Source: Chloroflexia bacterium (lineage in GTDB: Bacteria; Chloroflexota; Chloroflexia; QHBQ01; JADMIH01). Taken from it: a DNA stretch of 64,000 bases. The stretch spans positions 2,334-66,333 of the forward strand of contig DATINP010000033.1 of the NCBI GenBank assembly GCA_035474135.1. Direction: 5' to 3'. Each line of letters opens with the position of its first letter. Position 1 is the first letter of the stretch. The position numbers were made by a program, and so were the translations under genes. The notes beneath the pieces are model-generated. The model saw nothing but the letters and a program-made list of their open reading frames with translations. It was not told the DNA's origin and ran no database searches. Below, in pieces: positions 4,094 to 61,385 of the stretch.

Positions 4094-6502
4094 GTGAACA
4101 CAGAACCAAAACAATTCAGCATCAATCTTGCTGGCCGCGAATTGACCATAGAGGTCGGTCGCGTGGCCGAGCAGGCTTCGGGTGCTTGTACTGTGCGCTA
4201 CGGCGATACAGTAATCCTCGCGGCTGTAGTCGCTGCCAAGGAGCCACGCGAAGGCGCAGACTTCCTGCCCCTTACTGTTGATTACGAAGAGAAGATGTAC
4301 GCCGCAGGCAAAATCCCCGGCGGCTTCATCAAGCGCGAAGGCCGGCCCACAGAAAATGCCACACTGACATCGCGCCTCACCGACCGCCCTATCCGCCCCC
4401 TTCTGCCCAAGCAGTGGCGCGCGGAGATCCAGGTGACAATCACTACACTGTCCACCGACCAGGTAACTGAGCCTGAAATCCTCTCTATCATCGGCACCTC
4501 CGCCGCCATGCTCCTCTCTGACCTTCCCTTCGCGGGTCCGGTCGGCGCGGCCAAAGTCGGCTACATCAACGGTGAGTTCGTGCTCAATCCCACCGCCCAG
4601 CAGTTCCAGGAATCGGAGTTAGAACTGAGCCTCGCGGGAACCGAGGATGCCGTGTCAATGGTCGAAGCCAGCGCACACGAGCTTCCCGAAGATATCATGC
4701 TGGAAGCCGTCAAATTCGGTTTCGAGCAAGGGGTCAAGCCAGTCGCCGCTCTGCAAAGACAGATCGTCGAGGCTTATCAGCCCAAGAAGCGCGACTGGCA
4801 GCCTCCCGTCGCCGACACCTCCTTTACCGATGAGGTAACGGCATGGATCGGCACTCGTATGGCCGACGAAACTCACGACTCGGACAAAACGGTACGGGAA
4901 GACCGCACCAACGCCCTCCGCGCCGAAACGATTGCTCACTTCACTGAGTCTGCTGATCTTTCGGATGAGGACAAGGCGAAAATCACCGCCAATGTGAACA
5001 AGGCCTTCGACGTCCTTCTGAAAGAGGAAGTTCGCAACGCGATCCTCGTGCGCGGCGAGCGCCCCGATGGACGCGGTCCCAAGGACATCCGCCCTATCAG
5101 TATCGAAGTGGGCGTCCTCCCACGCACCCACGGCTCGGCCCTGTTTACACGCGGCCAGACCCAGGTGCTCTCGGTCGCCACTCTCGGTACAGGCGCTGAC
5201 GAGCAAATGCTCGATGGCCTCGGCATCGAGGACACCAAGCGCTACATTCATCACTACAACTTCCCGTCCTACTCGACCGGCGAAACCCGCCGAGGCCGAG
5301 GGCCATCACGCCGCGATATCGGCCACGGTGCGCTGGCCGAGCGTGCTCTTGAGCCTGTTCTGCCTTCCCAGGCTGATTTCCCCTACGTGATACGCGTTGT
5401 AAGCGAAGTGCTATCCTCCAACGGCTCCTCGTCTATGGCCTCTGTGTGCGGCAGCACCCTTTCGCTCATGGACGCAGGTGTCCCGATCAAGGCCCCGGTC
5501 GCAGGCATCGCGATGGGCCTCGTCGAGAGCAAGGATGGCACCCAGCACAAGGTCCTCACCGACATCCAGGGCATCGAAGACGCACTGGGCGACATGGACT
5601 TCAAAGTCGCGGGCACATCCGAGGGCGTTACCGGCCTCCAACTTGACCTCAAGACACAGGGGCTGGCATTCGCTATCATGGAAGAAGCCTTCGCACAGGC
5701 TCGTGAAGCTCGCCTCTTTATCCTCGACAAGATGCAGGAAGTGCTGGCCGAGCCTCGCCACCAGCTTTCCGCTTATGCACCGCGCATTCTCCGTATCAAG
5801 ATCAACCCCGAGAAGATCGGCGCGCTGATTGGTCCCGGCGGTAAGAACATAAGAGGCATCACCGAAAAGACAGGTACCAAGATCGACGTTGAGGAAGATG
5901 GCACAGTGCTGGTGGCCTCGACCGACGGCGAGAGTGCCAAGCAGGCAATCCGCATGATCGAGGGCCTCACTAAAGAAGCCGAGGTGGGCGAAATCTACCT
6001 GGGCAAGGTGGTTCGCATACTTCCCTACGGCGCATTCGTCGAAATCCTGCCCGGCAAAGACGGCCTCGTGCACATCTCCGAACTTGCAGATTACCGCGTC
6101 GAAAACGTGGAAGACGTGGTAAGCCTGGGTGACGAGATCAACGTGATGGTAATCGACGTTGACCGCCAGGGCAAAGTTAGCCTGTCGCGCAAGGCCGTAC
6201 TCACCGGCGAAATGCCCCCGCCCCGCGCCGAGCGCGAGCGCAGTGGCTTCGGCGGTGGCGGTCGAGATCGAGGTCCCCGCGAAGGCGGTGGCGGTGGCGG
6301 ATATAACCGCGGCGGCCCCGGTGGCGGCGGCGGCGGTGGCGGCTACAACCGTGGTGGTCCAGGCGGTGGCGGTGGCGGTGGATATAACCGCGGCGGCCCC
6401 GGTGGCGCTCCCGGCGGTGGTGGCTACAATCGCGGCGGTGGCGACCGGCCCCCCCGCGAAGGCGGCGACCAGGGTTCACAAGAGGGCGGCAACCGCTGGT
6501 AA
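4094..6502 (+). CDS. pnp: polyribonucleotide nucleotidyltransferase (PNPase) with Gly-rich GGYNRGG-repeat C-terminal tail
   Basis: GTG start with RBS; two RNase PH-like domains, KH (KIGALIGPGGKNIRGI) and S1 (GKVVRILPYGAFVEI) domains, then an ~95-aa low-complexity tail. Confidence 0.95.
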   Translation: MNTEPKQFSINLAGRELTIEVGRVAEQASGACTVRYGDTVILAAVVAAKEPREGADFLPLTVDYEEKMYAAGKIPGGFIKREGRPTENATLTSRLTDRPIRPLLPKQWRAEIQVTITTLSTDQVTEPEILSIIGTSAAMLLSDLPFAGPVGAAKVGYINGEFVLNPTAQQFQESELELSLAGTEDAVSMVEASAHELPEDIMLEAVKFGFEQGVKPVAALQRQIVEAYQPKKRDWQPPVADTSFTDEVTAWIGTRMADETHDSDKTVREDRTNALRAETIAHFTESADLSDEDKAKITANVNKAFDVLLKEEVRNAILVRGERPDGRGPKDIRPISIEVGVLPRTHGSALFTRGQTQVLSVATLGTGADEQMLDGLGIEDTKRYIHHYNFPSYSTGETRRGRGPSRRDIGHGALAERALEPVLPSQADFPYVIRVVSEVLSSNGSSSMASVCGSTLSLMDAGVPIKAPVAGIAMGLVESKDGTQHKVLTDIQGIEDALGDMDFKVAGTSEGVTGLQLDLKTQGLAFAIMEEAFAQAREARLFILDKMQEVLAEPRHQLSAYAPRILRIKINPEKIGALIGPGGKNIRGITEKTGTKIDVEEDGTVLVASTDGESAKQAIRMIEGLTKEAEVGEIYLGKVVRILPYGAFVEILPGKDGLVHISELADYRVENVEDVVSLGDEINVMVIDVDRQGKVSLSRKAVLTGEMPPPRAERERSGFGGGGRDRGPREGGGGGGYNRGGPGGGGGGGGYNRGGPGGGGGGGYNRGGPGGAPGGGGYNRGGGDRPPREGGDQGSQEGGNRW

Positions 6503-6598: not shown

Positions 6599-7144
6599 AT
6601 GAACGTACTCGAAGCGATCCGGCGCAAGCGCACCGTTCGCAAATATACCGACCAGCCTATCCCGCAGGACACGGTCGAACAAATCCTGTATGCAGGTCGC
6701 CGCGCTCAATCCTCCAAGAACCTGCAACCCTGGCACTTCATCGCCATCCAGAGCCGCGACACATTGACCGCCCTCTCCAAACTGGGCGACTACGCGACCC
6801 ATCTCCCGACCGCCGCGCTGGCCATTGCCATAATCACGCCGGATCCTGCGTCCCAGTACGCGGTCATGTTCGACGCAGGGCAGGCCGCAGCCTACATGCA
6901 GCTTGCCGCGCTCGACCTGGGCATCGGCTCGGGCATTATTACACTGCATAGGGCCGAACCTTCGCGAGAGATTCTCGGCTATCCCTCCAACCTCCACCTC
7001 CTGTTTTTGCTGGCCTTCGGCTATCCACAGGATCCCACAGCCGCGTTCAGCCCCGCATCGAGGCCGGGGGGCCGCTTGCCCACCAGCGAGATAATCCACT
7101 ACGAGCACTGGCAATCCCAAAGCCCAGCACAACCGGCAGAGTAG
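6599..7144 (+). CDS. nitroreductase family protein
   Basis: 181 aa; N-terminal RRTVRKYTDQPIP...NLQPWHFIAIQS block typical of NADH-nitroreductase fold. Confidence 0.8.
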   Translation: MNVLEAIRRKRTVRKYTDQPIPQDTVEQILYAGRRAQSSKNLQPWHFIAIQSRDTLTALSKLGDYATHLPTAALAIAIITPDPASQYAVMFDAGQAAAYMQLAALDLGIGSGIITLHRAEPSREILGYPSNLHLLFLLAFGYPQDPTAAFSPASRPGGRLPTSEIIHYEHWQSQSPAQPAE

Positions 7145-7523
7145 CACGAGGGAGAATAGGGGACTTCTAGGACACGTACGACCGCGCCCCGTCAAGCCCT
7201 GATAGGGGAATAAGCAAGTTCTCGACTGTTTCCGGTCAGACATTCCGGAGCATCTTGTAAGTGGCGAAACATTGTTCGCTTTGAATTCGTAATCATGTAT
7301 AATAGTCGCGACTTACAAACATAAAACCCAAATACGAAACGACCAAGGGATACGACACATGGCTAGGCAATGTCCGACCCAACCGTTCTCTGTTCGTGGC
7401 GAGCCGACGCTTAGAGTAGCCCACTCTAGTCAGGCTCCCACTCAAACACGCCCCGCTCTCCAGTCCACTGAACCAACTCGGCGCAATAGCAGCTCACAAC
7501 TGCCCGGTCCGCGCCTGTCCCCA

Positions 7524-8927
7524 ATGCTGGGGTGGTGGCCCAATGTACTGCCCATGCTCCGCGATCCCGCGATCAGCATGTTGCACCTCTGGTATCGCTA
7601 CGGCGACGCGGTATCCCTCGGCAACTATCGCGATGCGCCCATCCTGATAGTATTTTCGCCCGAGTACAACCGCTACGTTCTGACCAATAACGATATCTTC
7701 TACAGCCTCGATGTCAACAGCGGCGACGCACTGTTCAAAGTTCCGCCCGACACCTCGGCGGCGCGCCTCCTCTCCGGCATCGCGTCCATGAACGGTGAAG
7801 AACATACCGCGCATCGCCGCCTCCTCATGCCCAGCTTCCATAAGAAGCGCGTGGATGCCCTGCGTGACTCGATGGTTGAGTGCGTCGAGAACCATATCGC
7901 CGGCTGGCGCGATGGCGACCCGCGCATCCTCGTCAACGAAATGCTCGATCTCACTCTCGCCGTAGCAATCGTGGGCCTTATCGGTTTAAACCCTGCCGAA
8001 GAAGGCAAGCGCGTACGCAACCTGATCGAGCAGTGGAGCCAGCGCGGACTCACCCCACAGGTGGCTCTCCTCCCATACGACCTCCCCGGCACGCCCTATC
8101 GCCGCTTCCGCGTGCTGTCAGAACAGGTCGAAGCCGAACTGATCGAGGTAATCAAGCGCAAGCGCACCCGCGTCGGCTCGGCAGACGACGGCAACGAGGG
8201 CGATGCTCTCGCCCTGCTTATCCACGCGCAGGACGAAGACGGCACACTTCTTTCCGACAGCGACCTGATAGGGCATCTCAGCACTCTGTTCACCGCAGGC
8301 CACGAAACCACGGCCTCGGCCCTCACCTGGACGCTTTTCCTGCTCACCCAGCATCCCCACATACTAGCTGACCTCGTGGACGAACTCGACGGCGTATTGC
8401 ACGGTGATGCCCCGTCCCTCGAACAGCTACACAACCTCCCCCTGCTCGATAACATAGTGAACGAGGGGCTGCGGATGTTCCCGCCCGGCATGTGGATCTT
8501 CCGCACTGCTGTCAAGCCGTTTGAGCTTGGCCCCTACTCGCAGCCCGCCTTTTCCCAGCTTATCTTCAGCCCCACTGTTACCCACTACCGCCCCGACCTC
8601 TATCCGAATCCTCATACGTTCGACCCGCATCGATGGGAGACTATAAACCCTACGCCCTACGAATACCTGCCGTTCGGCGGCGGTCCGCGCCGTTGCCTCG
8701 GGGCAACCTTTGCCCTGCTTGAGATCAAGTTGGCGCTCTCCATTATCCTCCAGCGCTGGCGCATCGAGGTTCCCCACCGCCACCGCGTTGACCGCAGCGG
8801 CACGATTCTGTCCCGACCGAAAGACGGCCCACCCATCACTATCCACAAACAGGACCGCCACTTCGTCCACAGCGCAGTTCGGGGCAATATCCATGATCTC
8901 GTAGACTTCGGCCCCACCTACAAATAA
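7524..8927 (+). CDS. cytochrome P450 monooxygenase
   Basis: heme-ligand loop FGGGPRRCLGATFA, EXXR motif (ETTAS...EGLRM), AGHETT I-helix motif; start placed at the internal ATG 7524 because the 55 upstream codons of the ORF-track ORF (from 7359) look non-coding. Confidence 0.85.
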   Translation: MLGWWPNVLPMLRDPAISMLHLWYRYGDAVSLGNYRDAPILIVFSPEYNRYVLTNNDIFYSLDVNSGDALFKVPPDTSAARLLSGIASMNGEEHTAHRRLLMPSFHKKRVDALRDSMVECVENHIAGWRDGDPRILVNEMLDLTLAVAIVGLIGLNPAEEGKRVRNLIEQWSQRGLTPQVALLPYDLPGTPYRRFRVLSEQVEAELIEVIKRKRTRVGSADDGNEGDALALLIHAQDEDGTLLSDSDLIGHLSTLFTAGHETTASALTWTLFLLTQHPHILADLVDELDGVLHGDAPSLEQLHNLPLLDNIVNEGLRMFPPGMWIFRTAVKPFELGPYSQPAFSQLIFSPTVTHYRPDLYPNPHTFDPHRWETINPTPYEYLPFGGGPRRCLGATFALLEIKLALSIILQRWRIEVPHRHRVDRSGTILSRPKDGPPITIHKQDRHFVHSAVRGNIHDLVDFGPTYK

Positions 8928-11314: not shown

Positions 11315-13594
11315 TTGCCCCATTTTAAATCTATGTGTATAATGTGGTTTAAGCAAAGATCGAGCCATCATAGGCGCCAAGCCCAATTCTTGCAAGGAAG
11401 CAAGTTTGGTGCCATTTTCTATGCTCCGCACTTTGCGTATGCCGGTATAGAGCCAGGAGGAACTAAATCGTTGTCAAAGCAGACCGCTTCCCGGAGCGGA
11501 TCGGGTAATCGTGGCGCGCGCCGCAAGGACACTCAGCCGGACGGAGTATCCCCAGCAGAACGCACCACAGAAGACATAAGTCAGGCAACCGGTGGTCACC
11601 CCACGGGCGGTGGCAAGCAGCACTCTACTTCTTCCTCATCCTCAACTCCTTTCCTGCAGAACTCCAACGGCTCAAATTCGAATCATGCCGCGATGTCGGC
11701 GGACGACCCGGCCCTATTGAGCGTGGGCGGTCTTCCTATTTCTCCCGTCTTACCTACCACAGCCGAATACATGCAGATGCGAACCTCGCGAAGGCGCAGG
11801 TGGTTGCGGTTCGGTATCTTTATAGTGTTGATCGCCCTGATCTCCGAGAGCATTTGGCTCTCACCCTTCAGCGACAGCGCGGCGAACGCGGTCCCTCGCC
11901 AGCCTGATCCTATCCCCCTCGCAGAAGTCCAACCGTATGGTGTGAACACTTTCCTCCACAAAGAGGTAGATAGCTGGAAGAAAGATAAAACCATGCAAAT
12001 GGCCAAGGACCTGGGCGTGGGGTGGATCAAGCAGCAGTTTCCCTGGGCCGAGATTCAATTCAGCCCAAGCTCTGATCCCAAGATTGGCTATTGGGATAAC
12101 AAGAACGGCCAGAGCGCCTGGACCAAGTACGACAATATCGTGAGCCTTGCCCAACAGTATGGCTTGCGAGTTGTAGCGCGTATTGATAGCGCGCCTCTCT
12201 GGTCACACCCCGGTAACCCCGACCCCAAGGCTCCGCCGGACGCCGCGCACATGGCCGATTTCGGCGACTTTGTCGGCACCTTCGTAAACCGCTACCGAGG
12301 CAGTATCGCCGCCATCCAGGTCTGGAACGAACCTAACCTCAAGGGCGAGTGGGCAACGGGCAATCCCGTCAATGCTGCTGAATACACAGACCTGCTCAAA
12401 GTAGCGTATACAGCCGCCAAAAACGTCAATCCCGATATCATAGTGCTGGCCGCACCCCTCGCCACAACCTTCGAGTCCCTTGGCTATGCCGGCAACTTGA
12501 ACGAACTGGACTACATGCAGGACATGTACGACGCAGGCGCAAAGCCCTACTTCGACGCTATGGCTGCCAATGCCTACGGCACCACATTCGCCCCCGAAGA
12601 CCCACCATCACCTGACAGACTGAACTTCCGCCGAGTCGAGCTTTTGCATGACATCATGGTCAAAAACGGTGACGCTAACAAAGCGGTCTGGTTCAACGAG
12701 TACGGCTGGAATAGCTCACCTGACGACATAACAAATGTGCCCTGGGGCCGCGTCACGACCGAACAACAGGGCGACTATACCGTGCGCGGCATCCAATACG
12801 CCCGCCAGAACTGGCCCTGGGCGGGAGTATTCACTATATGGTATCTGCGCCAGGTCGGAGATATTCCCCGCACCAACAGTGAATTCTATTTCGGCCTCGT
12901 TGATCCCGACTTCAGGACGAGCGTTGCTTACGACCGTATCCAGGCTGCAGCCACCGTCCTCGACAGCGTGGCCGGGCCAGGAGTGTGGGGTCCTCTCACG
13001 GCACCTGTCACATCTGACCCACGCTGGCGCATTCGACTGGGCGACGTCACAGGGGGCATGTATCTGGCGCCCTCGGCCCTCGATATTAGCCTGAGCGTAC
13101 CGTTCAAAGGGACAGACGTATCGGTGCAGCTGGTGCCCCTCCAGAGCGCGGGTGCGATCACCGCCACGCAAACCGTTGGTGCCCGCTATTATGTGACCAT
13201 AGACGGTTCGTCACGCTCCGTGATCTCTGACCTACCTCGCGACGCAAGCGGCAATGCTTATATAGACGTCCCCGCTGTGGGCGCACCTCTCAATCTCGTG
13301 GTTGCGAAAGGGATCAATGCTGAATTCCAGACCGGGCAGCACACCCTTGGGATAAGGGTCGCCGCCAACCCGGCCGGGGTACAGCCACCGCTTGGTGGCC
13401 GCACATATGCGCCCCTCGTGCAAAGCCCTAACCTGCCGGGCATTGGCCTAATCACGGTTGAAGCTCACCGCTCCTATATTCTATTCGCCCTCTTGACGCT
13501 GGCGCTTCTCCTGGCGGGTGCATATCTCGTCTGGCTATTACGTAAGCCGCCCCCACCCTTGCCTGGGCCTGATTCTGCGGCTCCCGGGCGCTGA
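11315..13594 (+). CDS. membrane-anchored clan GH-A (GH5/GH39-like, PslG-like) glycoside-hydrolase-domain protein; start uncertain (alternatives at 11693 and later)
   Basis: low-complexity N-terminus, one TM helix (FGIFIVLIALI), TIM-barrel hydrolase motifs IQVWNEPN (acid/base) and FNEYGW (nucleophile); second TM near the C-terminus; stop TGA overlaps the next ATG by 1 nt. Confidence 0.6.
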   Translation: MPHFKSMCIMWFKQRSSHHRRQAQFLQGSKFGAIFYAPHFAYAGIEPGGTKSLSKQTASRSGSGNRGARRKDTQPDGVSPAERTTEDISQATGGHPTGGGKQHSTSSSSSTPFLQNSNGSNSNHAAMSADDPALLSVGGLPISPVLPTTAEYMQMRTSRRRRWLRFGIFIVLIALISESIWLSPFSDSAANAVPRQPDPIPLAEVQPYGVNTFLHKEVDSWKKDKTMQMAKDLGVGWIKQQFPWAEIQFSPSSDPKIGYWDNKNGQSAWTKYDNIVSLAQQYGLRVVARIDSAPLWSHPGNPDPKAPPDAAHMADFGDFVGTFVNRYRGSIAAIQVWNEPNLKGEWATGNPVNAAEYTDLLKVAYTAAKNVNPDIIVLAAPLATTFESLGYAGNLNELDYMQDMYDAGAKPYFDAMAANAYGTTFAPEDPPSPDRLNFRRVELLHDIMVKNGDANKAVWFNEYGWNSSPDDITNVPWGRVTTEQQGDYTVRGIQYARQNWPWAGVFTIWYLRQVGDIPRTNSEFYFGLVDPDFRTSVAYDRIQAAATVLDSVAGPGVWGPLTAPVTSDPRWRIRLGDVTGGMYLAPSALDISLSVPFKGTDVSVQLVPLQSAGAITATQTVGARYYVTIDGSSRSVISDLPRDASGNAYIDVPAVGAPLNLVVAKGINAEFQTGQHTLGIRVAANPAGVQPPLGGRTYAPLVQSPNLPGIGLITVEAHRSYILFALLTLALLLAGAYLVWLLRKPPPPLPGPDSAAPGR

Positions 13595-16500
13595 TGCGTC
13601 TCGCTCGTCCTCTCGTCAATGATATTTCGGCCAACCCTATTGCCAGGGCCGTCCTTGCCTGCCTGCTGCTGGCCACCTGCGTGGGATCCCTCGTGGGTGT
13701 TTCGTACGTCGATAATTACGTAAACGCCGGGGTCGCCTGGGGCGGGCCTCCACCTGACATCCCCCTCGCTGACGTAGACCCCATGGGGGTGAATCTCTTC
13801 CTTGAGAAAGAGCCTGACCCCGCCAACGTGGTCAAATCGCTCGACATGGCGCAGGCGGGCGGCTTCAAATGGATCAGGCAAGACTTCGCCTGGAACGACA
13901 TCGAGATCAGCGCCAAGGGCAATTTCACTGACACCCGCAACCCCGGCAACCCCGTCAGTTCCTGGGCCAAGTACGACTTCATTGTGGACCAGGCAGTCGC
14001 CCACGGCATTACTATTATGGCCCGCCTCGATAGCCCGCCTGTGTGGGCGCGCAAGCCCGGCGACGACCTGGAGACCTACCACAAAGGCCCACCCGCCAAT
14101 AACAACGACTACGGAGACTTTGTGGCCGCCGTCGCTGCGCGCTACAAGGGCAAGATCAAGTACTACCAGATATGGAACGAGCCAAACCTGTTAGGCGAAT
14201 GGGGAGGCCACCCTGTCAACGCCGAACAATACGTGGCCCTGCTGAAGGTGGCACACGACCACATCAAGGCCGTTGACCCCGACGCCGTGATTGTGTCGGC
14301 GGCTCTCGCGCCCACCACCGAGGAGAGCGCGGCCAACCGCAGCGACATCCTGTTCCTCGAAGATATGTACCGCGAGGGAGCTAAGCCCTATTTTGACATT
14401 ATGTCAACTATGATCTATGGGCTGGGTCAGCCGCCGAGCGACCGCCGCACCGACTTCAAGCGGTTGTCTTTCTCGCGCCCTGTGCTCTTGCACGAGGTAA
14501 TGGAGCGTAACGGCGATGCTCTGAAGCCGATCTGGATCAGTGAGTACGCCTGGCTCAGCTACCCCGACGACCTGCAACAACGGCTCAATCTCTCGCCGGA
14601 CGAGTGGGCTGCGTTCCAGGCCAAGAACATCTGGGGCAAGAGCGTAGATGAGCAGACGCAAGGCCAGTATCTCGTAGAGGGCTACGAGCGCGCCCGCGAC
14701 GAATGGCCCTGGATGGGCGTGATGTTCGTGTGGCACCTGCGCAACCCCGACGGCGACCCTCTCGAACCGGCCACCTACTTCTCCATCCTCAACCAGGATT
14801 TCACCCCACGGCCCGCGTACCTCGCCCTCCAGGAATACAGCAAGGTGGTACCGTCAACGCCCACTCCTCAATCGAAGCCCCTGCTGAACGCGCTGGGCTT
14901 CCCCTTCCTGTACGCGCTGTTTGGCCTGTTGGCGCTGGCATCGTTCGCCTTCCTCGGCCTGTCGGTGGGCGAGTGGGCACGTGCAGCACTGAACCGACCG
15001 CGAGGCCGCTACAGCGAGCGCACGCGTGAGACCGCACGCAACGGCGCGGCAATCGTAGGCATGGGGGCATGCTACGCACTCTTCTACGTGGTGGGCAATC
15101 TGCCGGTGATAGTCGTCGCGCTGGCGGGCTACCTGGTAATAGCCTTCTTCAAGCCGCAGGCAGCGCTGGCCTTCGTCGCCTTCTCGATACCGTTCTTCTG
15201 GTATCCCAAAGTCTATGGAAGCCAGCACTTTCCCGTCGCCGAAACCCTCGTAGTGATGGCTTTCGCCGCGCTTATAGCCCGCCGCACAGTTGCGGCCTTA
15301 CTACCTCGCCTGTGGGCGCGCCTCGGGCAACCCGGCATGTCGCCAATAACATCACAAGCCGTCGTGGTCGACCTGCGCGCCACCAAGCCCATTCCCATCA
15401 ACGAACCAATTTCTGCGCCTGAGCAAGCTCCCGTCGCTGAGGCACCGGAAGCCGTCGACCTCAGCCCCGCCGAGTGGCCTGCACGTCCCAGGGAGTTGAT
15501 AGCCGAGCTTGCCAAACCGCTCCCTCTCAATGGGGAAAGAGAAGAGAGCAGGGCTGCCGCCCGACGCAGGAGGTCGGACGACGCGCTCCCACAGGCCAAT
15601 TACCTCGACCCACTCCTAGCACGCTTTCGAGCATGGAACAGGCAGGATGCGTTTGCCGCGCCTGCAGTTGCGCTTCTCCTGATCGGCGCGCTTTCCATGC
15701 TGACTCTCGCCAATCATGATTTCGCACCCGATAGCGCCCGTGCGTACCGTTGGATCGTAATCGAGCCGGTCCTCCTCTACTTCCTGCTGACCGACATAAT
15801 CCGTACGAAGCGCGGCCTGGTGCGCGTACTCGACTTCTTCGTGGGCGCAGGGGTGTTTGTGGCCTTTATCGGTTTGTGGCAGTTCGTAGGAGGCAGCAAC
15901 ACGCTGGCTGTAGAGGGCGTGAGCCGCGTCATGAGCGTCTACGAGCACCCCAACAATCTGGCTCTATACCTCGGTAGGGTGGCGCCATTCGCAGCCTGCA
16001 CAGCCCTTTTCCTACCCTGGGGGTGGCGCAAGCTGCTCTATGCGCTGGCCGCTCTCCCACTGTTCGCTACTTTCCTGCTCACTTACTCACGCGGCGCTTG
16101 GGTGGGCGCGGCAGTTGCTATCGTGCTGGCGGTGAGTATCGGCCTACGCTGGCCCCTCAGCAGAGAATCCGCAAAGCCCACTCGCGCCTTCCGCGCGTGG
16201 CTGACTGCGGTGGGCGTGGGCGCTGTGGCGGTCGCAATTGCGGTGGTCTTCTTATTCCCTAGCCTGCCCGACCGCTTCATCAACCCTGATAGCGGTGTGA
16301 AGCGGATCGACATCTGGGTCAGCGCCCTCAAGATGGGCCGGGACCACCCCTTCTTCGGCATCGGCCAGGACCAGTTCCTGAACCAGTACCAGCTAAAGAA
16401 CCTCGACGGCACCTACCACTACATCACGAAGGCCCAGGTCGCCGAGCTCTACACGTCTCACCCCCACAATATCGTGTTGGACTGGTGGCTCTCATTAGGT

Positions 16501-16788
16501 ATAATGGGTCTGCTCGTGCTTGTATGGCTCCTGTGGCGCTACTATCGGGAGGCCATAAACCTTGCGAGGTGGTGCGCGTCCAAGGCAGCCTCGGATGCGC
16601 TCCTGCGTGCGGTAGTAATTGGCCTGATCGCCGCCATGACCGACTTCCTGGTACACGGCCTGGTCGACAACTCGTACTTCCTGATGGACCTCGCACTGAT
16701 CTTCTGGCTGAGTTGCGGCGCTATACAGTTAGGTCGTATGCTTTATGTGGACGGGGGACGGCAGACGGCAGACGGCGGTAGGAATTGA
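13594..16788 (+). CDS. fusion protein: N-terminal clan GH-A hydrolase-like domain (paralog of the previous gene) plus C-terminal multi-TM O-antigen polymerase/ligase (Wzy_C-like) domain
   Basis: YQIWNEPN and WISEYAW catalytic-type motifs, then 10+ TM helices with LTYSRGAWVGAAVAIVL and RIDIWVSALKMGRDHPFFGIGQDQF (O-antigen-ligase family signatures); 1064 aa in one frame. Confidence 0.65.
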   Translation: MRLARPLVNDISANPIARAVLACLLLATCVGSLVGVSYVDNYVNAGVAWGGPPPDIPLADVDPMGVNLFLEKEPDPANVVKSLDMAQAGGFKWIRQDFAWNDIEISAKGNFTDTRNPGNPVSSWAKYDFIVDQAVAHGITIMARLDSPPVWARKPGDDLETYHKGPPANNNDYGDFVAAVAARYKGKIKYYQIWNEPNLLGEWGGHPVNAEQYVALLKVAHDHIKAVDPDAVIVSAALAPTTEESAANRSDILFLEDMYREGAKPYFDIMSTMIYGLGQPPSDRRTDFKRLSFSRPVLLHEVMERNGDALKPIWISEYAWLSYPDDLQQRLNLSPDEWAAFQAKNIWGKSVDEQTQGQYLVEGYERARDEWPWMGVMFVWHLRNPDGDPLEPATYFSILNQDFTPRPAYLALQEYSKVVPSTPTPQSKPLLNALGFPFLYALFGLLALASFAFLGLSVGEWARAALNRPRGRYSERTRETARNGAAIVGMGACYALFYVVGNLPVIVVALAGYLVIAFFKPQAALAFVAFSIPFFWYPKVYGSQHFPVAETLVVMAFAALIARRTVAALLPRLWARLGQPGMSPITSQAVVVDLRATKPIPINEPISAPEQAPVAEAPEAVDLSPAEWPARPRELIAELAKPLPLNGEREESRAAARRRRSDDALPQANYLDPLLARFRAWNRQDAFAAPAVALLLIGALSMLTLANHDFAPDSARAYRWIVIEPVLLYFLLTDIIRTKRGLVRVLDFFVGAGVFVAFIGLWQFVGGSNTLAVEGVSRVMSVYEHPNNLALYLGRVAPFAACTALFLPWGWRKLLYALAALPLFATFLLTYSRGAWVGAAVAIVLAVSIGLRWPLSRESAKPTRAFRAWLTAVGVGAVAVAIAVVFLFPSLPDRFINPDSGVKRIDIWVSALKMGRDHPFFGIGQDQFLNQYQLKNLDGTYHYITKAQVAELYTSHPHNIVLDWWLSLGIMGLLVLVWLLWRYYREAINLARWCASKAASDALLRAVVIGLIAAMTDFLVHGLVDNSYFLMDLALIFWLSCGAIQLGRMLYVDGGRQTADGGRN

Positions 16789-16940
16789 AACGCAAAGACG
16801 CAAAGGATTTAAGAGAGATCACGAAGATCACGAAGGGTAAGAGATCACGAAGAGTTAAGAGGGATTAAGGGTTTGACGCATGACGTATGACGCATAACGC
16901 GTTACCACAGTCGTCGGTCGTCAGTCGTCAGTCGTCAATC
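16757..16940. repeat. intercistronic tandem-oligomer element A: (GACGGCA)x3, (GATCACGAA)x3, (TGACGCA/TGACGTA)x3 with a TAACGCGTTA palindrome, (CAGTCGT/CGGTCGT)x4
   Basis: read directly; lies between the polymerase-fusion gene stop (16788) and the UXS gene start (16960); the first block encodes the protein tail DGGRQTADGGRN. Confidence 0.85.
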
Positions 16941-16959
16941 CGAAAAGGGGGCAGTTACT

Positions 16960-17922
16960 TTGCACATCGTAGTCACCGGCGGCGCGGGCTTCATCGGCTC
17001 TCATCTTTGCGAGGCCTTGCTTGCCCAGGGCCATTCCGTCACCGCTATTGACAACTTCCTGACAGGCAACCGCCGGAATATCGCCCATCTGCACGACAGT
17101 CCTCTCTTCCAACTGTTGGAGCACGACATAGTGCAGCCTCTCGACACGCCAGCGATCAATGCCCTGCCACCCGTGGACGCCGTGTTTCACCTCGCCAGCC
17201 CGGCATCACCCGCCGACTTCAGCCGCATCCCCCTCCAGATTGCCATCATCAATTCGCAGGGCACTCATAATGTGCTCGCTTTCGCGGTCAAGCACAGGGC
17301 ACGCTACCTGATCACATCCACATCAGAGGCATACGGTGAACCCGAAGTCCACCCACAGACCGAAGACTACAATGGCAACGTCAGCACTACCGGCCCGCGC
17401 GCCTGTTACGACGAGGGCAAGCGATTCGGCGAAGCTATAACCTCGGTCTACGTGCGCGAGCAGGAACTCGATGGGCGCATCGTGCGTATTTTCAACACCT
17501 ATGGTCCCCGCATGAACCCGCAGGATGGCCGCTCGGTCCCCAACTTCATAACCCAGGCTTTGCTCGGCAAACCGCTGACGATCTACGGCGACGGCAGTCA
17601 GACCCGCTCTTATTGCTACGTAAGCGACATGGTGGCCGGGTTGATCGCGGTAATGTTCGCCCCGCCCGAAACCAAAGGCATGATATTCAACGTGGGCAAC
17701 CCTGACGAGCGCACGATAAAGGACTTCGCCGAGACCATACGCGACCTCTGTGGTTCTGCCTCCACGATTGACTACCTTCCCGCCCTCCAGGACGACCCTT
17801 CCCGTCGCTGTCCCGACATCACACGCGTCACTAAGGCGCTCGGCTGGCAGCCCACTGTGCCCCTGGAGAAGGGTCTACCCGCCACGATTGAGTGGTTCCG
17901 CACACAGGTATGGCCCAACTAG
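16960..17922 (+). CDS. UDP-glucuronate decarboxylase (UDP-xylose synthase)-like NAD-dependent epimerase/dehydratase
   Basis: TTG start after AAAAGGGGG; GGAGFIGSHL Rossmann motif, YDEGKR catalytic YxxxK, high similarity to the UXS/ArnA-decarboxylase type along its length. Confidence 0.75.
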   Translation: MHIVVTGGAGFIGSHLCEALLAQGHSVTAIDNFLTGNRRNIAHLHDSPLFQLLEHDIVQPLDTPAINALPPVDAVFHLASPASPADFSRIPLQIAIINSQGTHNVLAFAVKHRARYLITSTSEAYGEPEVHPQTEDYNGNVSTTGPRACYDEGKRFGEAITSVYVREQELDGRIVRIFNTYGPRMNPQDGRSVPNFITQALLGKPLTIYGDGSQTRSYCYVSDMVAGLIAVMFAPPETKGMIFNVGNPDERTIKDFAETIRDLCGSASTIDYLPALQDDPSRRCPDITRVTKALGWQPTVPLEKGLPATIEWFRTQVWPN

Positions 17923-21887: not shown

Positions 21888-22009
21888 GGACCAGTGACCG
21901 GTGACCAGTGACCAGTGGCAGGTGACCGGTGACCAGTGCGTCATGCGTCATGCGTCATACGTCATACGTCATGCGTGACTTACGATCTAAGATCTACGAT
22001 CTAAGACTC
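21888..22009. repeat. intercistronic tandem-oligomer element B: (GTGACCA/GTGACCG)x7, (CGTCATG/CGTCATA)x5, (GATCTAA/GATCTAC)x4
   Basis: read directly; lies between the hypothetical-gene stop (22021) and the flippase start (21871). Confidence 0.85.
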
Positions 22010-22612: not shown

Positions 22613-22665
22613 GGACGACGCTTGACTTACGATCTAAGATCTACGACTCGTTTTACGACCGACGA
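22613..22665. repeat. intercistronic tandem-oligomer element C: GACGACG, (GATCTAA/GATCTAC)x3, CGACTCG/CGACCGA
   Basis: same 7-mer families as element B; overlaps the last codons of the GT4 gene (tail RKTSRRS). Confidence 0.7.
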
Positions 22666-23854: not shown

Positions 23855-23923
23855 GAACGACGACGGACGGCGGACGGCGGACGACGTACCACTCAGTCGT
23901 CTGTCGTCTGTCGTCCGTCGTCC
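23855..23923. repeat. intercistronic tandem-oligomer element D: (GACGACG/GACGGCG)x4 then (CAGTCGT/CTGTCGT/CCGTCGT)x5, an imperfect hairpin
   Basis: read directly; lies between the UPF0104-gene stop (23931) and the GT4 start (23851). Confidence 0.8.
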
Positions 23924-23930
23924 TTTCTCA

Positions 23931-34025: not shown

Positions 34026-36479
<2,454 letters not shown>

Positions 36480-36480
36480 C

Positions 36481-36554
36481 ATAGCGCAACTCGGCTAAGA
36501 AGTAAGGTGTAGTCAGTTGCGACTACACCTTACTTCTTAGCCGAGTTGCGCTAT
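36481..36554. repeat. perfect palindrome: two 34-bp arms separated by a 6-nt loop (AGTTGC), immediately after the clpB stop
   Basis: ATAGCGCAACTCGGCTAAGAAGTAAGGTGTAGTC ... GACTACACCTTACTTCTTAGCCGAGTTGCGCTAT; reverse-complement checked by hand. Confidence 0.9.
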
Positions 36555-36715
36555 AGGGGTTGACAAATAGGGCATAAGCTGGTAAATAATAACTTAAAAC
36601 AAGTCTGCCGAATCTAACGATGGCTTTCGGTTGTCGATCATTAGCTTCATGCATTCTCTATGAGCAGATTGTTTGGAACTTAGAGAGGATCAGTTTGCTG
36701 GGAAGGAGCTTCGTG

Positions 36716-38046
36716 ATGGGAAAACTAATGCAAACAGGCGGGCTGCTAGCCATGATGGTAATTATGCTCAGTATCAATATCTCCTCTGTGCGGGCTTCTC
36801 AAGCTATCAATAAGCACGAAGTGCCATTGTCACTATGTTCAGGCTTCAGTGATGTGCAGGATACCGACTTTTTCTGCCATTTTCTGACAGTTATGGTAAA
36901 CAATGGAGATATCACCGGTTATCCAGATGGAACGTTTCGCCCTATAACGGGGTCACTAGAGGTGAGTTCTCCAAAATACTGATTGAGGGATTCGATCTCT
37001 GTTGCAACACCAGTGGAGGGCCACATTTCGCTGATGTTCCAGTGGGATCCACTTTCTATAATTGGATAGAGACAGCCTACAACAGGGGAGTCATCACCGG
37101 TTACAGTGACATGGGACATTGTGGTACACAGATACCATGTTTTTTGCCAGGTGCCAACCTTACACGCCAGCAAATGGCTAAGATGATCGCTATAACTGCT
37201 GGCTTTGGTGAATCCACAACGGGTAGGCCAGCCAGTTACTATGATATGACTAGCGGAAACACCTTCTTTTCTTATGTTGAGAACCTGGTAATGCACGCTG
37301 TGGCAAATCCGTTTGCTGCTTCCAATCCTCCCTACTGCCCATCATCCACCCAACCCTGTTTCTATCCTGGTGAAAATGCAACTCGCGCCGATATAGTAGC
37401 AAATGTTATGAACGCTCACCTGTCTAACGGCTACGGTCAGGTATTCGCAGCGAAAAGTGGAACATACACTGGTGTATCGGTTTATATTACAACTCCTGAT
37501 AATCCGGTCTCTGGTGTGCAGTTTATTGATGCACCTGTTGGTATGACCACCAAGACTAACGGGAAATTTATAGAATCAGGTCCAACAAAGGACTGCATTC
37601 CAAACTGCGGGAGTGGTTACTTATACCTGCATCCTTATGGGAGTTGGGGCAATTGGTATAGCGGTGGTCAGGATATCCTTAGAACTGTCTATCTCGCTTC
37701 AGGGGGTAGGTACGGATACAAGACAATCTATTTTGGCGGATCGGGTGGGCAGTGGCAGTCACAATATTGTGATGCGACTGGCTGCCGGGGAATTGTTTCA
37801 TCAGGCGACCTTGGAACAACCCTTCCGTATGTAGCAACAGGCGTCGAAGCCAACGCTAGAAACGTAAGCGTTGGACCGGTAACCTCATCCTATGCACAGT
37901 ACTTTTTGAACGGATCATGGTTCTACTGGTGCTATGACCCAACATTGCCACCCTGGAAGACAGCGTACCCTCCTAGCGGAATCAAGGGTAGTATTGGTTC
38001 ATGTAGCACTTATGACTATAGTTGGACAATTACCAACACTCCTTAG
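36716..38046 (+). pseudogene. secreted SLH-domain (three SLH-like repeats) protein, reading frame broken by a +1 shift at a G4 run (36949-36952)
   Basis: signal peptide MGKLMQTGGLLAMMVIMLSINISSVRASQA; SLH repeat 1 ...GDITGYPDGTFRP in frame 2 ends at 36982, and its expected continuation VTRGEFSKIL is read in frame 1 and merges into ORF 37042-38046 (SLH repeats 2-3 plus a Cys/Gly/Tyr-rich C-terminal domain). Confidence 0.55.
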
Positions 38047-38055
38047 GAGAAAACC

Positions 38056-38787
38056 ATGAGAACACACGGGAATTCCCATCAGTGGCGTAAATGGACCGCA
38101 ATTTTGATTGTTGGTGGCCTAACAATTAGCATGGCTCTCATCTATCTGTCCCTTACCTCGACTAAAGGCGGCAATCTTTCCGCTATTATGCCTGACACAC
38201 AAGGAGCCAATTTCCATTATGGTACCGAGAGTCTAGTTGGAGCTTCTCCAGATGAGGTAGGGCAGTATGCTTTAGAGTATGTACAACACCACCTTGAAGT
38301 AAGCGGTGAGCCTCAGGTTGTGCTTGCACGGTTTATCACGCAAGCAGAACGACCTTCGCTTGGGCTCGGCTGCCCACAAGCGAAGTTGACAATAGAAGAT
38401 CCACCAGAGATTCTAGTCATTCTTAGTGGCGACTTCGATGTAAGCAAAGCGATCAGCGGGTTGGCAACCAAACCACCTTGGCACTTCAAGTACGTAGCGT
38501 ACATCTTTGATCTGTGGTCTGCAAGTCATACAACATTTATTTACTCCCGGAATGGCGCCCAATTCAGGACTGCTCTAAACGATCCGACTATCCCATCAGA
38601 TGGCCCTAATGCAGAAGCTTCTCCTATCTGCCCCACGCCACTGCCAGATCAGGTTCTACTGCATTATGGGGATATTGCTCCCACAATTCAGATTCCTGAA
38701 GGACCGGCTGTGGGAAGTCCGACACCAGTATCTCCAATACCATCAGAGATCGTTCCCCCTCCATTACCTACATACGGATCAAAATAA
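38056..38787 (+). CDS. hypothetical membrane-anchored protein (islet gene)
   Basis: 243 aa; N-terminal TM (WTAILIVGGLTISMALIYLSL), Pro-rich C-terminus; lower GC than surroundings. Confidence 0.4.
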   Translation: MRTHGNSHQWRKWTAILIVGGLTISMALIYLSLTSTKGGNLSAIMPDTQGANFHYGTESLVGASPDEVGQYALEYVQHHLEVSGEPQVVLARFITQAERPSLGLGCPQAKLTIEDPPEILVILSGDFDVSKAISGLATKPPWHFKYVAYIFDLWSASHTTFIYSRNGAQFRTALNDPTIPSDGPNAEASPICPTPLPDQVLLHYGDIAPTIQIPEGPAVGSPTPVSPIPSEIVPPPLPTYGSK

Positions 38788-38951
38788 ATCCTAAAACGAC
38801 AGGACACAGTATAGCGCGCCCATCGTTGAATAATGAGCAATGTGACCAAGCCTTAGCAGGGCTACTGTGGCTATATTCTTCGAACTCTTGCCTGCTGCAC
38901 CCACTACAACGTATCAAGCGTGGGGCCGTTCACCACGATGCACTCAGATTT

Positions 38952-42950: not shown

Positions 42951-43291
42951 CCCGCTCACCGATACAACCGGTAACTCAATACGAATCAGAAACCCCCGCC
43001 GGTGCGGGGGTTCTGCCATTAAGGAGGAAGGAGTGGAAGATTTTCTAACATTCACCTGTCGTTAAAGTATACGCACAGGGTTACAAATCGGATTTCAACG
43101 CAATTTGGTCCGGTTTGCCCGATCATGTAATTGTCTCGTAAGCCTTCCGTAAGGCGATTTACGACCGTGTAACTGCCACCTGCGATGATTAGCCCAGCCG
43201 GTAAATATGGTTCTCACAATTGGGTGAGGCCTGTACCGAAGCCAATCAGAAGGGAGCTAACAAAGACCTCCCTATGCCATGGAGGAATGAA

Positions 43292-44509
43292 ATGGACAAA
43301 ATCGCAGGAAAGCTGTTCTCGAAGTACGCCCGGTTATTCGTAGTGGCTGCCCTATTGCTGGCATCCTTTGTAGTCGTGGGCGGCAGCGCTTCAGCCGAAG
43401 GACGGCCCGCCTCGGGCACGGTCTACACCCTCGCCAATGCCGCCGCGGGCAACGCTGTCGCAGTCTATGACAGGGCGCCGGACGGCACACTTGCCCTGGC
43501 GTATACTGTCCCCACGGGCGGCCTCGGCACGGGAGCCAGCCTGTCTTCTCAGGGCGCGCTCGCCATCAGCGATAACGGACGCTGGCTCTTCGCGGTCAAC
43601 GCGGGCAGCAACGATATTTCCGTGTTCGACACGAACGGTGCCGGCAGGAAAGCCGATGCCACGACCCCCACAGCGAACAGTGCCGATCACCATAATCAGC
43701 AGTTGCGCTTGGTTGACCGTATAGCGTCAGGTGGCACCGATCCGGTGAGCCTCACCTCGCACGACGACATCCTCTACGTGCTGAACGCGGGCGTGCCCAA
43801 CAATATAACCGGCTTCCAGGTTGGGCACGGCGGCACGATCAGCCGCATCAACGGGTCTACTCAACCGCTGAGTGGTGCAAACACCGGCCCTGCCGAAATT
43901 CAGTTCAGTAACAATGGCCGCGTACTGGTCGTTACCGAAAAGGCAACCAACAAACTGGATACGTACACCGTCAACTCTCACGGCCGCGCAGATGGCCCCA
44001 ACGTCCAGAACTCGGCCGGCACGACCCCTTATGGCTTCGCGTTCGACAGCCGCAACCACCCCATCGTATCCGAGGCATTCGGAGGCGCCGCTAACGGCTC
44101 AGCCGCGTCATCCTACGCCCTCAACAATGCCGGCACTCTCACCACAGTCAGCGCGTCTGTACCGACCAACCAGACCGCCGCGTGCTGGGTAGCCATAAGC
44201 AAGAACGGCAGATTCGCCTACACCGCTAACGCGGGTAGCGGCAGCATAACGGGCTACAGCATAACGGGCTACAGCATAGCGCACGACGGCAGCCTCACGC
44301 TGCTCGACCCCAGCGGCATTACAGGAGTAACGGGCAACGGCAGTACGCCCACAGACCTGGCGGTAAGCAGCGACGGCAAGTTCCTCTACTCGCTGGACGC
44401 AGGCAGCCATGCCTTCTCCGGCTTCCAGATCGGCCACGACGGCAGCCTGACGCCGGTCAGCACCACGACGGGTCTGCTTCCGGGCACTGTGGGCCTGGTT
44501 GCGCGCTAA
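43292..44509 (+). CDS. secreted beta-propeller protein, lactonase-like family (tentative)
   Basis: start ATG 43292 with GGAGGA RBS; signal peptide; repeated NxGS.xIS/V.F blade-like units; contains an in-frame 15-bp tandem duplication (SITGYSITGY). Confidence 0.45.
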   Translation: MDKIAGKLFSKYARLFVVAALLLASFVVVGGSASAEGRPASGTVYTLANAAAGNAVAVYDRAPDGTLALAYTVPTGGLGTGASLSSQGALAISDNGRWLFAVNAGSNDISVFDTNGAGRKADATTPTANSADHHNQQLRLVDRIASGGTDPVSLTSHDDILYVLNAGVPNNITGFQVGHGGTISRINGSTQPLSGANTGPAEIQFSNNGRVLVVTEKATNKLDTYTVNSHGRADGPNVQNSAGTTPYGFAFDSRNHPIVSEAFGGAANGSAASSYALNNAGTLTTVSASVPTNQTAACWVAISKNGRFAYTANAGSGSITGYSITGYSIAHDGSLTLLDPSGITGVTGNGSTPTDLAVSSDGKFLYSLDAGSHAFSGFQIGHDGSLTPVSTTTGLLPGTVGLVAR

Positions 44510-44579
44510 CGTACAGGTACCTGGGACAAAGGGGGATTGCAACACCGCAATCCCCCTTTGCTTATTGTAAAATAGGCCT

Positions 44580-49171: not shown

Positions 49172-49192
49172 TAGTGGGTCCACCTGGCGATT

Positions 49193-49253
49193 AGACGACA
49201 GACGACGGTTAGTGGGTACTGTCGTCCGTCGTCGGTCGTCCGTCGTCCGTCGC
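49193..49253. repeat. intercistronic tandem-oligomer element E: AGACGACAGACGACGG, 12-nt loop, then (GTCGTCC/GTCGTCG/GTCGGTC) repeats
   Basis: read directly; lies between the nrnA stop and the truB start; encodes the nrnA tail DDGRPTTDD. Confidence 0.8.
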
Positions 49254-50732: not shown

Positions 50733-50850
50733 TCTCAATTCTCAATTCTCAATTTTGAATTCTTAATTAAGCCGTGCCATCCGGTTTGCGTAACCTGGTC
50801 GGACTGCCACATCTTCATTAATTAAGAATTCAAAATTGAGAATTGAGAAT
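50733..50850. repeat. AT-rich pair of 33-bp inverted repeats flanking a 47-bp GC-rich core (MITE-like or large RNA hairpin) in the infB-rbfA spacer
   Basis: ATTCTCAATTCTCAATTTTGAATTCTTAATTAA ... TTAATTAAGAATTCAAAATTGAGAATTGAGAAT; the left arm contains (AATTCTC)x3. Confidence 0.85.
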
Positions 50851-53004: not shown

Positions 53005-53128
53005 TTAATACCTCCTTGATCGCAGATCAGGGATCCAGGACCGTAAGTCGAAGTTTGTAATTAACTGAATAGTAGATATTGTTATTTACCTCCGGCACAT
53101 AAGCTACGATCTTCGATTCGCGGCCTTA

Positions 53129-61257: not shown

Positions 61258-61385
61258 TCAGGGCTTGATAGCGCCGTCGCTGGGCCTCCAGTCGGCACAC
61301 GAAAAGGTACCCGCTTAAAAGAAGAGCAGCAGTGGTTGCATACCACTGCTGCTCTTCTTTCTGGTTATTGGATCGTCAGGTTACA

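Follow-up and report, generated by a model that had tools for sequence, protein, structure and literature searches.

What kind of element is a 184-bp block of short tandem repeats that fills the space between two genes, and what, if anything, does it do there? The block in question (positions 16757-16940, hereafter element A) lies in a stretch of 64,000 nucleotides from an uncultured Chloroflexia bacterium (contig DATINP010000033.1 of assembly GCA_035474135.1; the whole stretch is referred to as the window), between a gene for a Wzy_C/GH5 polymerase-fusion protein and a gene for a UDP-sugar epimerase/decarboxylase-type (UXS-like) protein. A first-pass annotation had pointed out this block and four more such elements (B to E), and had considered their distribution to resemble that of the repetitive extragenic palindromic (REP) sequences and bacterial interspersed mosaic elements (BIMEs). 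We found that the elements represent a clade-wide class of intergenic period-7 arrays without a common sequence, and that the arrays of this class are gained, lost and resized quickly. At certain operon junctions the stem formed by inverted arrays appears to be under selection; element A itself is most likely a lineage-specific and nearly neutral by-product of the process that makes the arrays.

A clade-wide class of period-7 arrays

A genome scan with IF-2 (translation initiation factor 2, encoded by infB) yielded 80 loci, the best of which was 94% identical and the nearest of which were all from uncultured Chloroflexia. The clade sample comprises the window and the loci L001-L020 and L161-L166, and covers 392 kb, of which 36.9 kb is intergenic. 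The intergenic DNA of this sample contained 102 arrays with a period of 7, next to 15 with a period of 14 and 3 with a period of 21, and every other period was represented by at most 9 arrays. The density of the period-7 arrays was 2.8 per kb in the clade intergenic DNA versus 0.34 per kb in infB loci from further away and 0.35 per kb in unrelated contigs from metagenomes (570 kb). A metagenome scan with the UXS-like protein recovered only relatives of at most 56% identity; it was uninformative for the site of element A and served as a generic control. The same period dominated among the hairpins that were collected with a purpose-made inverted-repeat finder from the window and the 80 infB loci: arms with a periodicity at lag 7 were found in 46 of the 118 intergenic hairpins with arms of at least 16 nt, where the other lags between 4 and 12 together accounted for 6.

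The arrays do not have a sequence in common. In a slightly larger set (the window, L001-L026, L161-L163 and L165) the 145 period-7 arrays in all contexts make use of 69 distinct canonical units, with a mean G+C content of 0.44 where the genome has about 58%. Some unit types (such as GACCAGT and AAACGTG) were encountered again in several genomes, at sites that are not orthologous. A BLAST search with the five elements against 166 loci (1.8 Mb) recovered array-level matches only and no dispersed copies of whole elements, and therefore there is no sequence family in the sense of REP sequences or miniature transposable elements with inverted repeats (MITEs). With respect to their position, on basis of crude longest-ORF (open reading frame) gene calls, arrays were present in 28% of the co-directional, 21% of the convergent and 16% of the divergent spacers, with densities of 4.6, 3.6 and 1.5 arrays per kb, respectively, which indicates an association with gene 3' ends and operon junctions that is not exclusive. 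Arrays of this kind are a pervasive feature of the gene spacers in this uncultured Chloroflexia clade, and many assemblies of independent origin contain the class, which speaks against the assembly artefact that the first-pass annotation had named as a possible refutation.

In the window, Tandem Repeats Finder (TRF) returned 12 period-7 rows, 10 of which scored at least 40, versus means of 1.14 and 0 in 100 dinucleotide shuffles. Such rows are present in each of the five elements, and element A in addition contains 8-mer and 9-mer arrays. TRF and direct reading of the sequence resolve element A as a compound cluster of five tandem arrays, mostly of heptamers:

16757-16776 (+): block 1, (GACGGCA)x2.9; from TRF, sequence, translation and fold
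16790-16805 (+): block 2, (ACGCAAAG)x2; from TRF
16816-16861 (+): block 3, an imperfect 9-mer, (AGATCACGA)x3-4; from TRF
16874-16900 (+): block 4, (TGACGCA/TGACGTA)x3.9, ending in the palindrome TAACGCGTTA (16895-16904); from TRF
16908-16937 (+): block 5, (CAGTCGT)x4.3, the 3' arm and partner of block 1; from TRF

The repeat block between the two genes is thus as first annotated, with block 2 as one array that had gone unlisted. The upstream ORF (13594-16788), which has a Wzy_C match and a weak GH5 match, reads through block 1, which overlaps the final codons of the gene; the stop codon is at 16786-16788, and the protein ends in ...VDGGRQTADGGRN*. Over all its 1064 amino acids this protein is identical to the deposited HST03446.1 (MAG TPA: Chloroflexia bacterium; MAG, metagenome-assembled genome), which, together with the translation, corroborates the earlier remark that the first block is translated as a protein tail. 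Considering that the tails of homologous proteins diverge directly after a conserved ...LSRMLY, the repeat-encoded tail is incidental, and arrays of this type lengthen annotated proteins such as HST03446.1 by meaningless repeat-encoded tails. The downstream ORF (16960-17922) encodes the UXS-like protein and starts with a TTG at 16960. Its Shine-Dalgarno sequence AAAAGGGGG is found at 16943-16951, and block 5 stops 5 nt upstream of it. An exact-sequence look-up of the UXS-like protein, with either L or M as first residue, gave no match.

The other four elements in the window, and a partial copy of one of them, are the following:

21889-22006 (-): element B, (GACCAGT)x7, (TGCGTCA)x5.7 and (GATCTAA)x3.3, all direct; from TRF
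22623-22646 (-): a 24-nt exact copy of part of element B (original at 21976-21999), with the sequence GACTTACGATCTAAGATCTACGA
23856-23925 (-): element C, inverted (GACGGCG)/(GTCGTCT) arrays with arms of 27-30 nt and a loop of 10 nt; from TRF
49190-49252 (-): element D, inverted (GACGACN)/(NGTCGTC) arrays, between a DHH/DHHA1 (nrnA-like) gene and truB
50733-50851 (-): element E, perfect 34-bp arms of (AATTCTC)-type heptamers with a loop of 47 nt, in the spacer between the infB stop and the rbfA ATG

All five elements are located in co-directional spacers, so that TRF and the gene positions bear out what had been said of the four additional ones, and three of the five lie within a polysaccharide gene cluster. 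Element B is situated between a gene for a 171-aa protein and a flippase-like gene. Element C fills the spacer from the stop codon of an LPG-synthase-like gene (23931) to the ATG of a GT4 gene (23851), without a Shine-Dalgarno sequence, and the 5' arm of element D is translated on the sense strand as the protein tail ...TDDGRPTTDDSTH*. The 7-mers for which the first-pass annotation had proposed a search proved to be ordinary in coding sequence, and the idea of their enrichment as single motifs was rejected; it is the tandem arrays alone that are confined to spacers. The second GACTTACGATCTAAGATCTACGA copy is located where the adjacent GT4 gene has its 3' end, neither copy folds significantly, and the duplicate is the sole hint of an array segment spreading between adjacent spacers. 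The (TGACGCA)n array of element A (16874-16900) occurs as its reverse complement in element B (21937-21976), which makes the two arrays inverted repeats around 5 kb apart. They bracket a flip in gene orientation near 20340, and the unit is identical on the sense strand of each gene; this pair is a possible inversion substrate.

The predicted RNA fold of element A as a whole (-57.8 kcal/mol, z = -3.5) is dominated by one long-range stem, which consists of three 6-bp helices with one G.U pair each and 1-nt mismatches in between. Only blocks 1 and 5 take part in it, with block 1 as the 5' arm. The inner blocks showed neither mutual complementarity nor pairing in the fold, and either outer arm taken alone is unstructured. 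Mutual near-complementarity, as claimed for the blocks in the first-pass annotation, is therefore a property of the outer blocks and not of the inner ones, and the proposed stacked hairpins give way to a single stem. Among the other elements a clear hairpin was obtained for C (z = -3.7) and E (-53.7 kcal/mol, z = -9.3) and a weaker fold for D (z = -1.7). Stem-loops are thus possible for the outer blocks of A and for C, D and E, and not for B, for which no significant fold was found (z = -0.35). Elements A, C and D share GACGRCN/NGYCGTC units, and the strand with the G.T wobble is always the + strand, whatever the gene direction. The GC skew is negative over most of the window, and the + strand wobble may represent a replication-strand mutational bias.

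Searches for known signals were negative. Rfam 15 gave no matches at the gathering score in the whole window and none at E <= 1 in 16700-17000, and a promoter/terminator consensus scan did not reveal any promoter-like or terminator-like site within elements A to C. The riboswitch reading was dropped as there was no Rfam match, the CRISPR reading was dropped given units of 7-9 nt and the lack of spacers, and the small-ORF reading was dropped as there was no credible ORF inside the elements.

Turnover of the arrays and hairpins at operon junctions

The order of the genes around element A (Bac_transf on the reverse strand, an unknown gene, the Wzy fusion, UXS and Wzy_C) is kept in four relatives, which enables a comparison of the spacer between the fusion gene and the UXS gene:

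L165: fusion protein 67% identical; spacer of 17 nt with a ribosome-binding site only
L163: fusion protein 68% identical; spacer of 31 nt with a ribosome-binding site only
L161: fusion protein 81% identical; spacer of 84 nt with (CCTTTGCGA)x3, a unit that corresponds, in reverse complement, to a 9-mer akin to the ACGCAAAG unit of the window
L162: fusion protein 81% identical; spacer of 108 nt with (TCACGTA)x2 and (TCACGAACT)x3
Window: 100%; spacer of 171 nt with element A

In a MAFFT alignment of the window, L161 and L162 the flanking genes align and the spacers do not, and element A is not conserved even at 81% identity of the fusion protein. In the window the UXS and Wzy_C genes overlap, so that the adjacent UXS-Wzy_C spacer does not exist there. 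This spacer contains a non-periodic stem of around 35 bp in L165 (8304-8471) and (GTTCGTG)x3 and (CTACCGA)x3 arrays in L163 (8219-8379), so that plain and heptamer hairpins alternate between relatives at this position.

A comparison of near-identical strains points in the same direction. L165, a 1.43-Mb ENA contig, and L166, an independent NCBI MAG, are 99.98% identical over 6.7 kb and differ at one (CAGTTGT)n/(ACAACYG)n hairpin, which has around 6+6 units in the one and around 3+2 in the other, a gap that might include repeat collapse in short-read assembly. The variation in copy number between strains that the first-pass annotation had suggested looking for is therefore seen at one hairpin of the class, away from the site of element A; a second strain of the window organism was not found. 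The independent assemblies L163 and L164 are 99.96% identical over 7.9 kb; the region they share is devoid of heptamer arrays and therefore shows only that the assemblies agree.

At some operon junctions, the turnover concerns the sequence and not the hairpin. In 18 of the 21 clade genomes, a count that is inflated by phylogenetic non-independence, the infB stop codon is immediately followed by a hairpin whose arms measure at least 14 bp, versus 25% of the other co-directional spacers and 38% of those of at least 40 nt; in L003 and L005 weaker infB hairpins can be recognised by eye. Most genomes have arms made of heptamer arrays, and the unit is lineage-specific: AATTCTC in the window and AATTCTT, AATTACG, AATTATG, AGTAGTC, AGGGATC, TCAGGGG, TGCGGAA or GATTGCA elsewhere, with a GATAGCA-like unit in Anaerolineae and Caldilineae. 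Over the 14 base-proximal pairs of 26 infB loci, Watson-Crick pairing amounts to 96% within a locus, which is partly built in as the hairpins were chosen by complementarity, versus 33% when arms from different loci are combined. The arm identity between loci is likewise 33%, and all four pair types are seen at every position. Variant units are mirrored exactly between the two arms (for example 32/32, 34/34 and 31/31 bp). In L001, whose IF-2 is 94% identical, the infB-rbfA stem is non-periodic, and its outermost 7 bp (ATTCTCA/TGAGAAT) are the exact unit that is tandemly amplified on both arms of element E. Hairpins with other units were also found at the nrnA-truB junction, the site of element D, in L001, L003, L015, L019 and L020. 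As the infB stem is kept while its sequence is replaced, we infer that the stem itself is under selection at the infB-rbfA and, less regularly, the nrnA-truB junctions.

Many of the co-directional stems fill the entire spacer, with the stop codon within around 9 nt of the 5' arm and the start codon 0-17 nt past the 3' arm, and without a Shine-Dalgarno sequence. The rbfA ATG, which is fixed by the conserved N-terminus of RbfA in around 15 genomes, is found 0-3 nt past the arm. In L010 a perfect stem (-51.6 kcal/mol) begins 2 nt past the nusA stop codon TAA, and the final bases of its 3' arm make up the ylxR ATG; element C shows the same stop-hairpin-start geometry. In elements A and D the upstream gene extends past the 5' arm before its stop codon is reached, and a ribosome that translates it therefore has to melt the stem. 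Heptamer hairpins at rimP-nusA, nusA-ylxR and infB-rbfA junctions were observed in L010 (9535-9620; 8045-8113), L013 and L014, the nusA-ylxR stem including the ATG. In the window, the ylxR-infB spacer (53005-53128) lacks a hairpin, and its AAGGAGG ribosome-binding site is a normal one. In L015 (around 7110-7540) the (ATTTTGG) and (CCAAAAC) arrays that follow infB are around 400 nt apart with an apparent inserted ORF between them, which suggests an insertion into the loop of the infB-rbfA hairpin.

The window contains several further repeats and hairpins. Coding repeats that are unrelated to the elements are a Gly-rich 42/81-nt repeat at 6283-6438 (ORF 4094-6502), a perfect 15-nt x2.5 repeat at 44242-44278 (ORF 43220-44509), a 21-nt repeat at 52681-52724 in the N-terminal part of infB, and 18-nt repeats at 61867-62151 (ORF 61386-63647). 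A perfect non-periodic hairpin with 34-bp arms and a 6-nt loop (36481-36554, -65 kcal/mol) begins 2 nt past the stop of a ClpC/ClpB-type ATPase gene (34026-36479) and is followed by a TTGACA...TAAATA promoter-like stretch; it is unusually long for a terminator and lacks a U-tract. Other long perfect non-periodic hairpins lie at 61318-61360 and 44527-44560. The region 36000-38800 has a G+C content of around 0.50 versus around 0.58 elsewhere and an atypical codon-position G+C across three ORFs, one of which (37042-38046) has a weak SLH-domain match; it is possibly acquired DNA, situated directly after the 34-bp hairpin.

Origin and role of the arrays

Based on the above, we consider it probable that the elements are heptameric arrays of local origin and fast turnover, that the inverted ones act as mRNA stems between cistrons, and that element A is near-neutral. 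The arrays would be made on the spot and not by a mobile element of fixed sequence. Replication slippage with a strong preference for 7 nt would amplify whatever sequence is present, as exemplified by the base of the L001 stem that may have given rise to the unit of element E, and the complementarity of inverted arrays would be preserved by copying from one hairpin arm to the other. The arrays as such would expand, contract and get replaced within species-to-genus time. Lying in spacers that are presumably transcribed, the inverted pairs (the outer blocks of A, and C, D and E) are predicted to form long stem-loops in the polycistronic mRNA. The most likely role of these would be intercistronic punctuation, either as a barrier to 3' exonucleases or as an RNase III-type processing site. 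A second potential role is translational coupling, in which the terminating ribosome opens the base of a stem that hides a start codon lacking a Shine-Dalgarno sequence.

Several points weigh against this reading. The functional roles of the hairpins are all ones that we infer from sequence. Not every array is structured, as is clear from element B and from the spacers of L161 and L162, which do not fold significantly (z = +0.5 and +0.8). Element A folds better as sense RNA (-55.9 versus -41.7 kcal/mol for the antisense), but for element C it is the antisense RNA that folds better (-56.2 versus -38.7 kcal/mol). None of the elements A to E carries a U-tract, and reading of the sequence confirmed the lack of a T-run after the 3' arms of D and E, by which a role as intrinsic terminator was rejected. 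When G.U and A.C mismatches were compared on the sense strand of co-directional spacers as a test at the RNA level, no excess of sense-strand G.U was found (9 versus 18 antisense for the heptamer hairpins and 22 versus 22 for the others), and mismatches of all kinds are rare (around 6% of the arm positions). Apparently, therefore, the complementarity is restored on the DNA itself or through repeated replacement of the arms, and a slow compensatory evolution of RNA stems would fit less well. To these points should be added the limits given with the figures above, namely the crude gene calls, the relatedness of the 21 genomes, the selection of the infB hairpins by complementarity and the possible repeat collapse.

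The lack of a G.U bias equally suits the view that the arrays are purely neutral debris, in which 7-nt-biased slippage and palindrome-generating replication errors would act in tolerant spacers and nothing would be functional. The very fast turnover, with the A-site element absent in relatives, the polymorphic copy number between near-identical strains, the high diversity of the units and the unstructured arrays of element B, L161 and L162 would all follow naturally, and polymerase slippage has in fact been proposed as the cause of the bacterial heptamer excess (earlier work cited in PMC4692102). Pure neutrality is contradicted, however, mainly by the occupancy of the infB-rbfA junction, where a hairpin with a replaced sequence is present far above the background, and by the geometry of the exact stop-to-start stems, as these stems go with a missing Shine-Dalgarno sequence, which would come at a cost if the stem did not permit, or was not needed for, downstream expression. 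The around threefold lower array density per kb in divergent spacers also argues against it. On balance, we regard a fully neutral origin as rather unlikely.

The same stop-to-start stems could be given more weight than we have done, by taking the stop-hairpin-start modules as a dedicated translational-coupling device, present throughout the clade, which takes the place of the Shine-Dalgarno sequence and is built and kept up by copying in a specific 7-nt register. The upstream stop and the downstream start would be brought together at the stem base, and the terminating ribosome would re-initiate across the hairpin in a shunt-like manner; alternatively, processing of the hairpin would yield a nearly leaderless downstream mRNA. 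The 7-nt-register copying would then be common to cyanobacteria, Beggiatoaceae and Xanthomonas. We consider this a doubtful proposal.

It is improbable that the elements act at the level of the DNA, as a cruciform or single-stranded DNA hairpin or as a protein-binding site with a role in replication, recombination or chromosome organisation, or as a contingency locus whose copy-number changes tune neighbours such as the surface-polysaccharide cluster. The arms are mostly perfect Watson-Crick pairs without a preference for sense-strand wobble, and the constant + strand G.T wobble of A, C and D, the polymorphic copy number, the location of three of the five window elements in the polysaccharide gene cluster and the inversion of (TGACGCA)n between A and B are all in line with such a role. 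The 69 different units make a sequence-specific binding protein implausible, though, and the regular mismatches in the stems of A and C disfavour a cruciform. Since the arrays are only found in final codons or behind stop codons they are unable to switch reading frames, and elements are also spread over housekeeping operons. A phase-variable contingency repeat was rejected as well, as the arrays are not in a promoter or 5' coding region and no promoter-like site was found in A to C.

It is very improbable that a transposase has spread the elements as a mobile element of the REP/BIME or MITE type. The extragenic, co-directional and convergent placement, the hairpin potential, the exact 24-nt copy of part of element B nearby and the GACCAGT and AAACGTG units at non-orthologous sites in several genomes are what one would expect from such an element, but there is no shared consensus, orthologous spacers are unalignable, BLAST of whole elements retrieved array-level matches only, and reading of the sequences that flank the elements did not reveal target-site duplications. 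Moreover, the unit of element E derives from a local ancestral stem. Finally, an assembly artefact, for which the MAG origin of the contig and the proneness of palindromes and repeats to misassembly could be put forward, can practically be dismissed, as dozens of assemblies made independently, some with contigs of more than 1 Mb, have members of the class at orthologous positions, and the arrays are shorter than a sequencing read.

Comparison with known repeat systems

Bacterial repeats of tandem heptamers were already known in 1990. The elements described here belong to the class of heptameric simple-sequence repeats of the type of the short tandemly repeated repetitive (STRR) sequences: they are composed of 7-nt head-to-tail units, they are dispersed, with an excess of period 7 over the 392 kb, and they include inverted, hairpin-forming arrays. 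They are not STRR sequences in the strict cyanobacterial sense, given that the host is represented by a Chloroflexia MAG and that 69 units were found among 145 arrays in place of a small fixed set. The sequence logic that the first-pass annotation had set apart from that of REP/BIME elements is not new, as tandem heptamers, including inverted hairpin pairs, have already been described in other bacteria.

Most similar are the cyanobacterial STRR sequences. In several cyanobacteria a hairpin of 7-bp repeats is found between hupS and hupL, for which roles in transcript stability and translational coupling have been proposed (PMC2670836), and tandem heptanucleotides have been reported in Calothrix (work cited in PMC4692102). 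The Chloroflexia elements share with these the 7-nt units, the intergenic and dispersed occurrence, the frequent inversion and the recurrence of a hairpin at the same junction. They differ in their host, in the far greater diversity of the units, in the admixture of 8-9-nt arrays (element A) and in the many stems that take up exactly the space from stop to start.

An excess of heptameric repeats is seen in many bacterial genomes and has been ascribed, as a proposal, to slippage of the polymerase (earlier work cited in PMC4692102). The GGGAATC arrays of Xanthomonas comprise 70-75 inverted pairs per genome that could form stem-loops, and together with GGGGA(T/C)T of Nostoc they constitute one family of G-rich units with G-quadruplex potential (PMC4692102); heptamer repeats of Nostoc affect the expression of a reporter (bioRxiv 10.1101/2022.06.06.494920). 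Like these, the elements represent an intergenic excess of heptamers that would mostly be transcribed, and the length of the arrays varies between related species while the repeat type is kept. Unlike these, the units of the window have no G-tracts; units of the AGGGATC or CTAGGGG type occur only in some relatives (L018, L024, L037).

Two other systems share part of these characteristics. Within the same phylum, Chloroflexus aurantiacus possesses 22 scattered satellites derived from (GATAGRA)n, and thus has heptamer-derived arrays scattered in the genome; these form a single unit family that was read as transposed satellites, in an analysis that did not extend to hairpin architecture, position or turnover (PMC6749651). 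The direct TAACTGA repeats that occur in Beggiatoaceae, some cyanobacteria and Bacteroidetes are also intergenic heptamer arrays beside start codons, which replace the Shine-Dalgarno sequence and for which translational regulation has been proposed; they have one fixed unit, are almost always direct (one indirect set among 170) and are found upstream of genes and not from stop to start (PMC4679880). In the literature that was searched we did not find a description of the present hairpin architecture or its turnover in Chloroflexia, and repeats of this kind are not mentioned in the paper on the Herpetosiphon genome.

The clade therefore offers a dense natural experiment, or comparative system, on the role of heptamer arrays and of the seven-base unit. 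Its useful properties are hairpins that stay at fixed operon junctions despite the replacement of their sequence, arms that were apparently amplified from the base of an older stem, copy-number change between near-identical strains, and exact stop-to-start stems that remove the Shine-Dalgarno sequence. Together these properties separate the process that makes the arrays from the selection on the stem, and the infB-rbfA, nusA-ylxR and nrnA-truB junctions are concrete places to look for a role in mRNA processing or translational coupling.

With respect to function, the REP sequences and BIMEs of Escherichia coli are extragenic palindromes that stabilise the upstream mRNA, as in malE-malF. REP sequences have a conserved consensus of around 35 nt and are linked to RAYT transposases (REP-associated tyrosine transposases). 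The likeness in distribution noted in the first-pass annotation stands as far as the extragenic, co-directional or convergent placement is concerned, and falls short in that the Chloroflexia elements have no consensus and form no sequence family, their stems being built from local tandem units. Nevertheless, both are extragenic, occur within operons or between convergent genes and would form stem-loops in the mRNA, which makes the REP/BIME system a plausible working analogy for function, and by this analogy the elements may well work like REP sequences and STRR hairpins.

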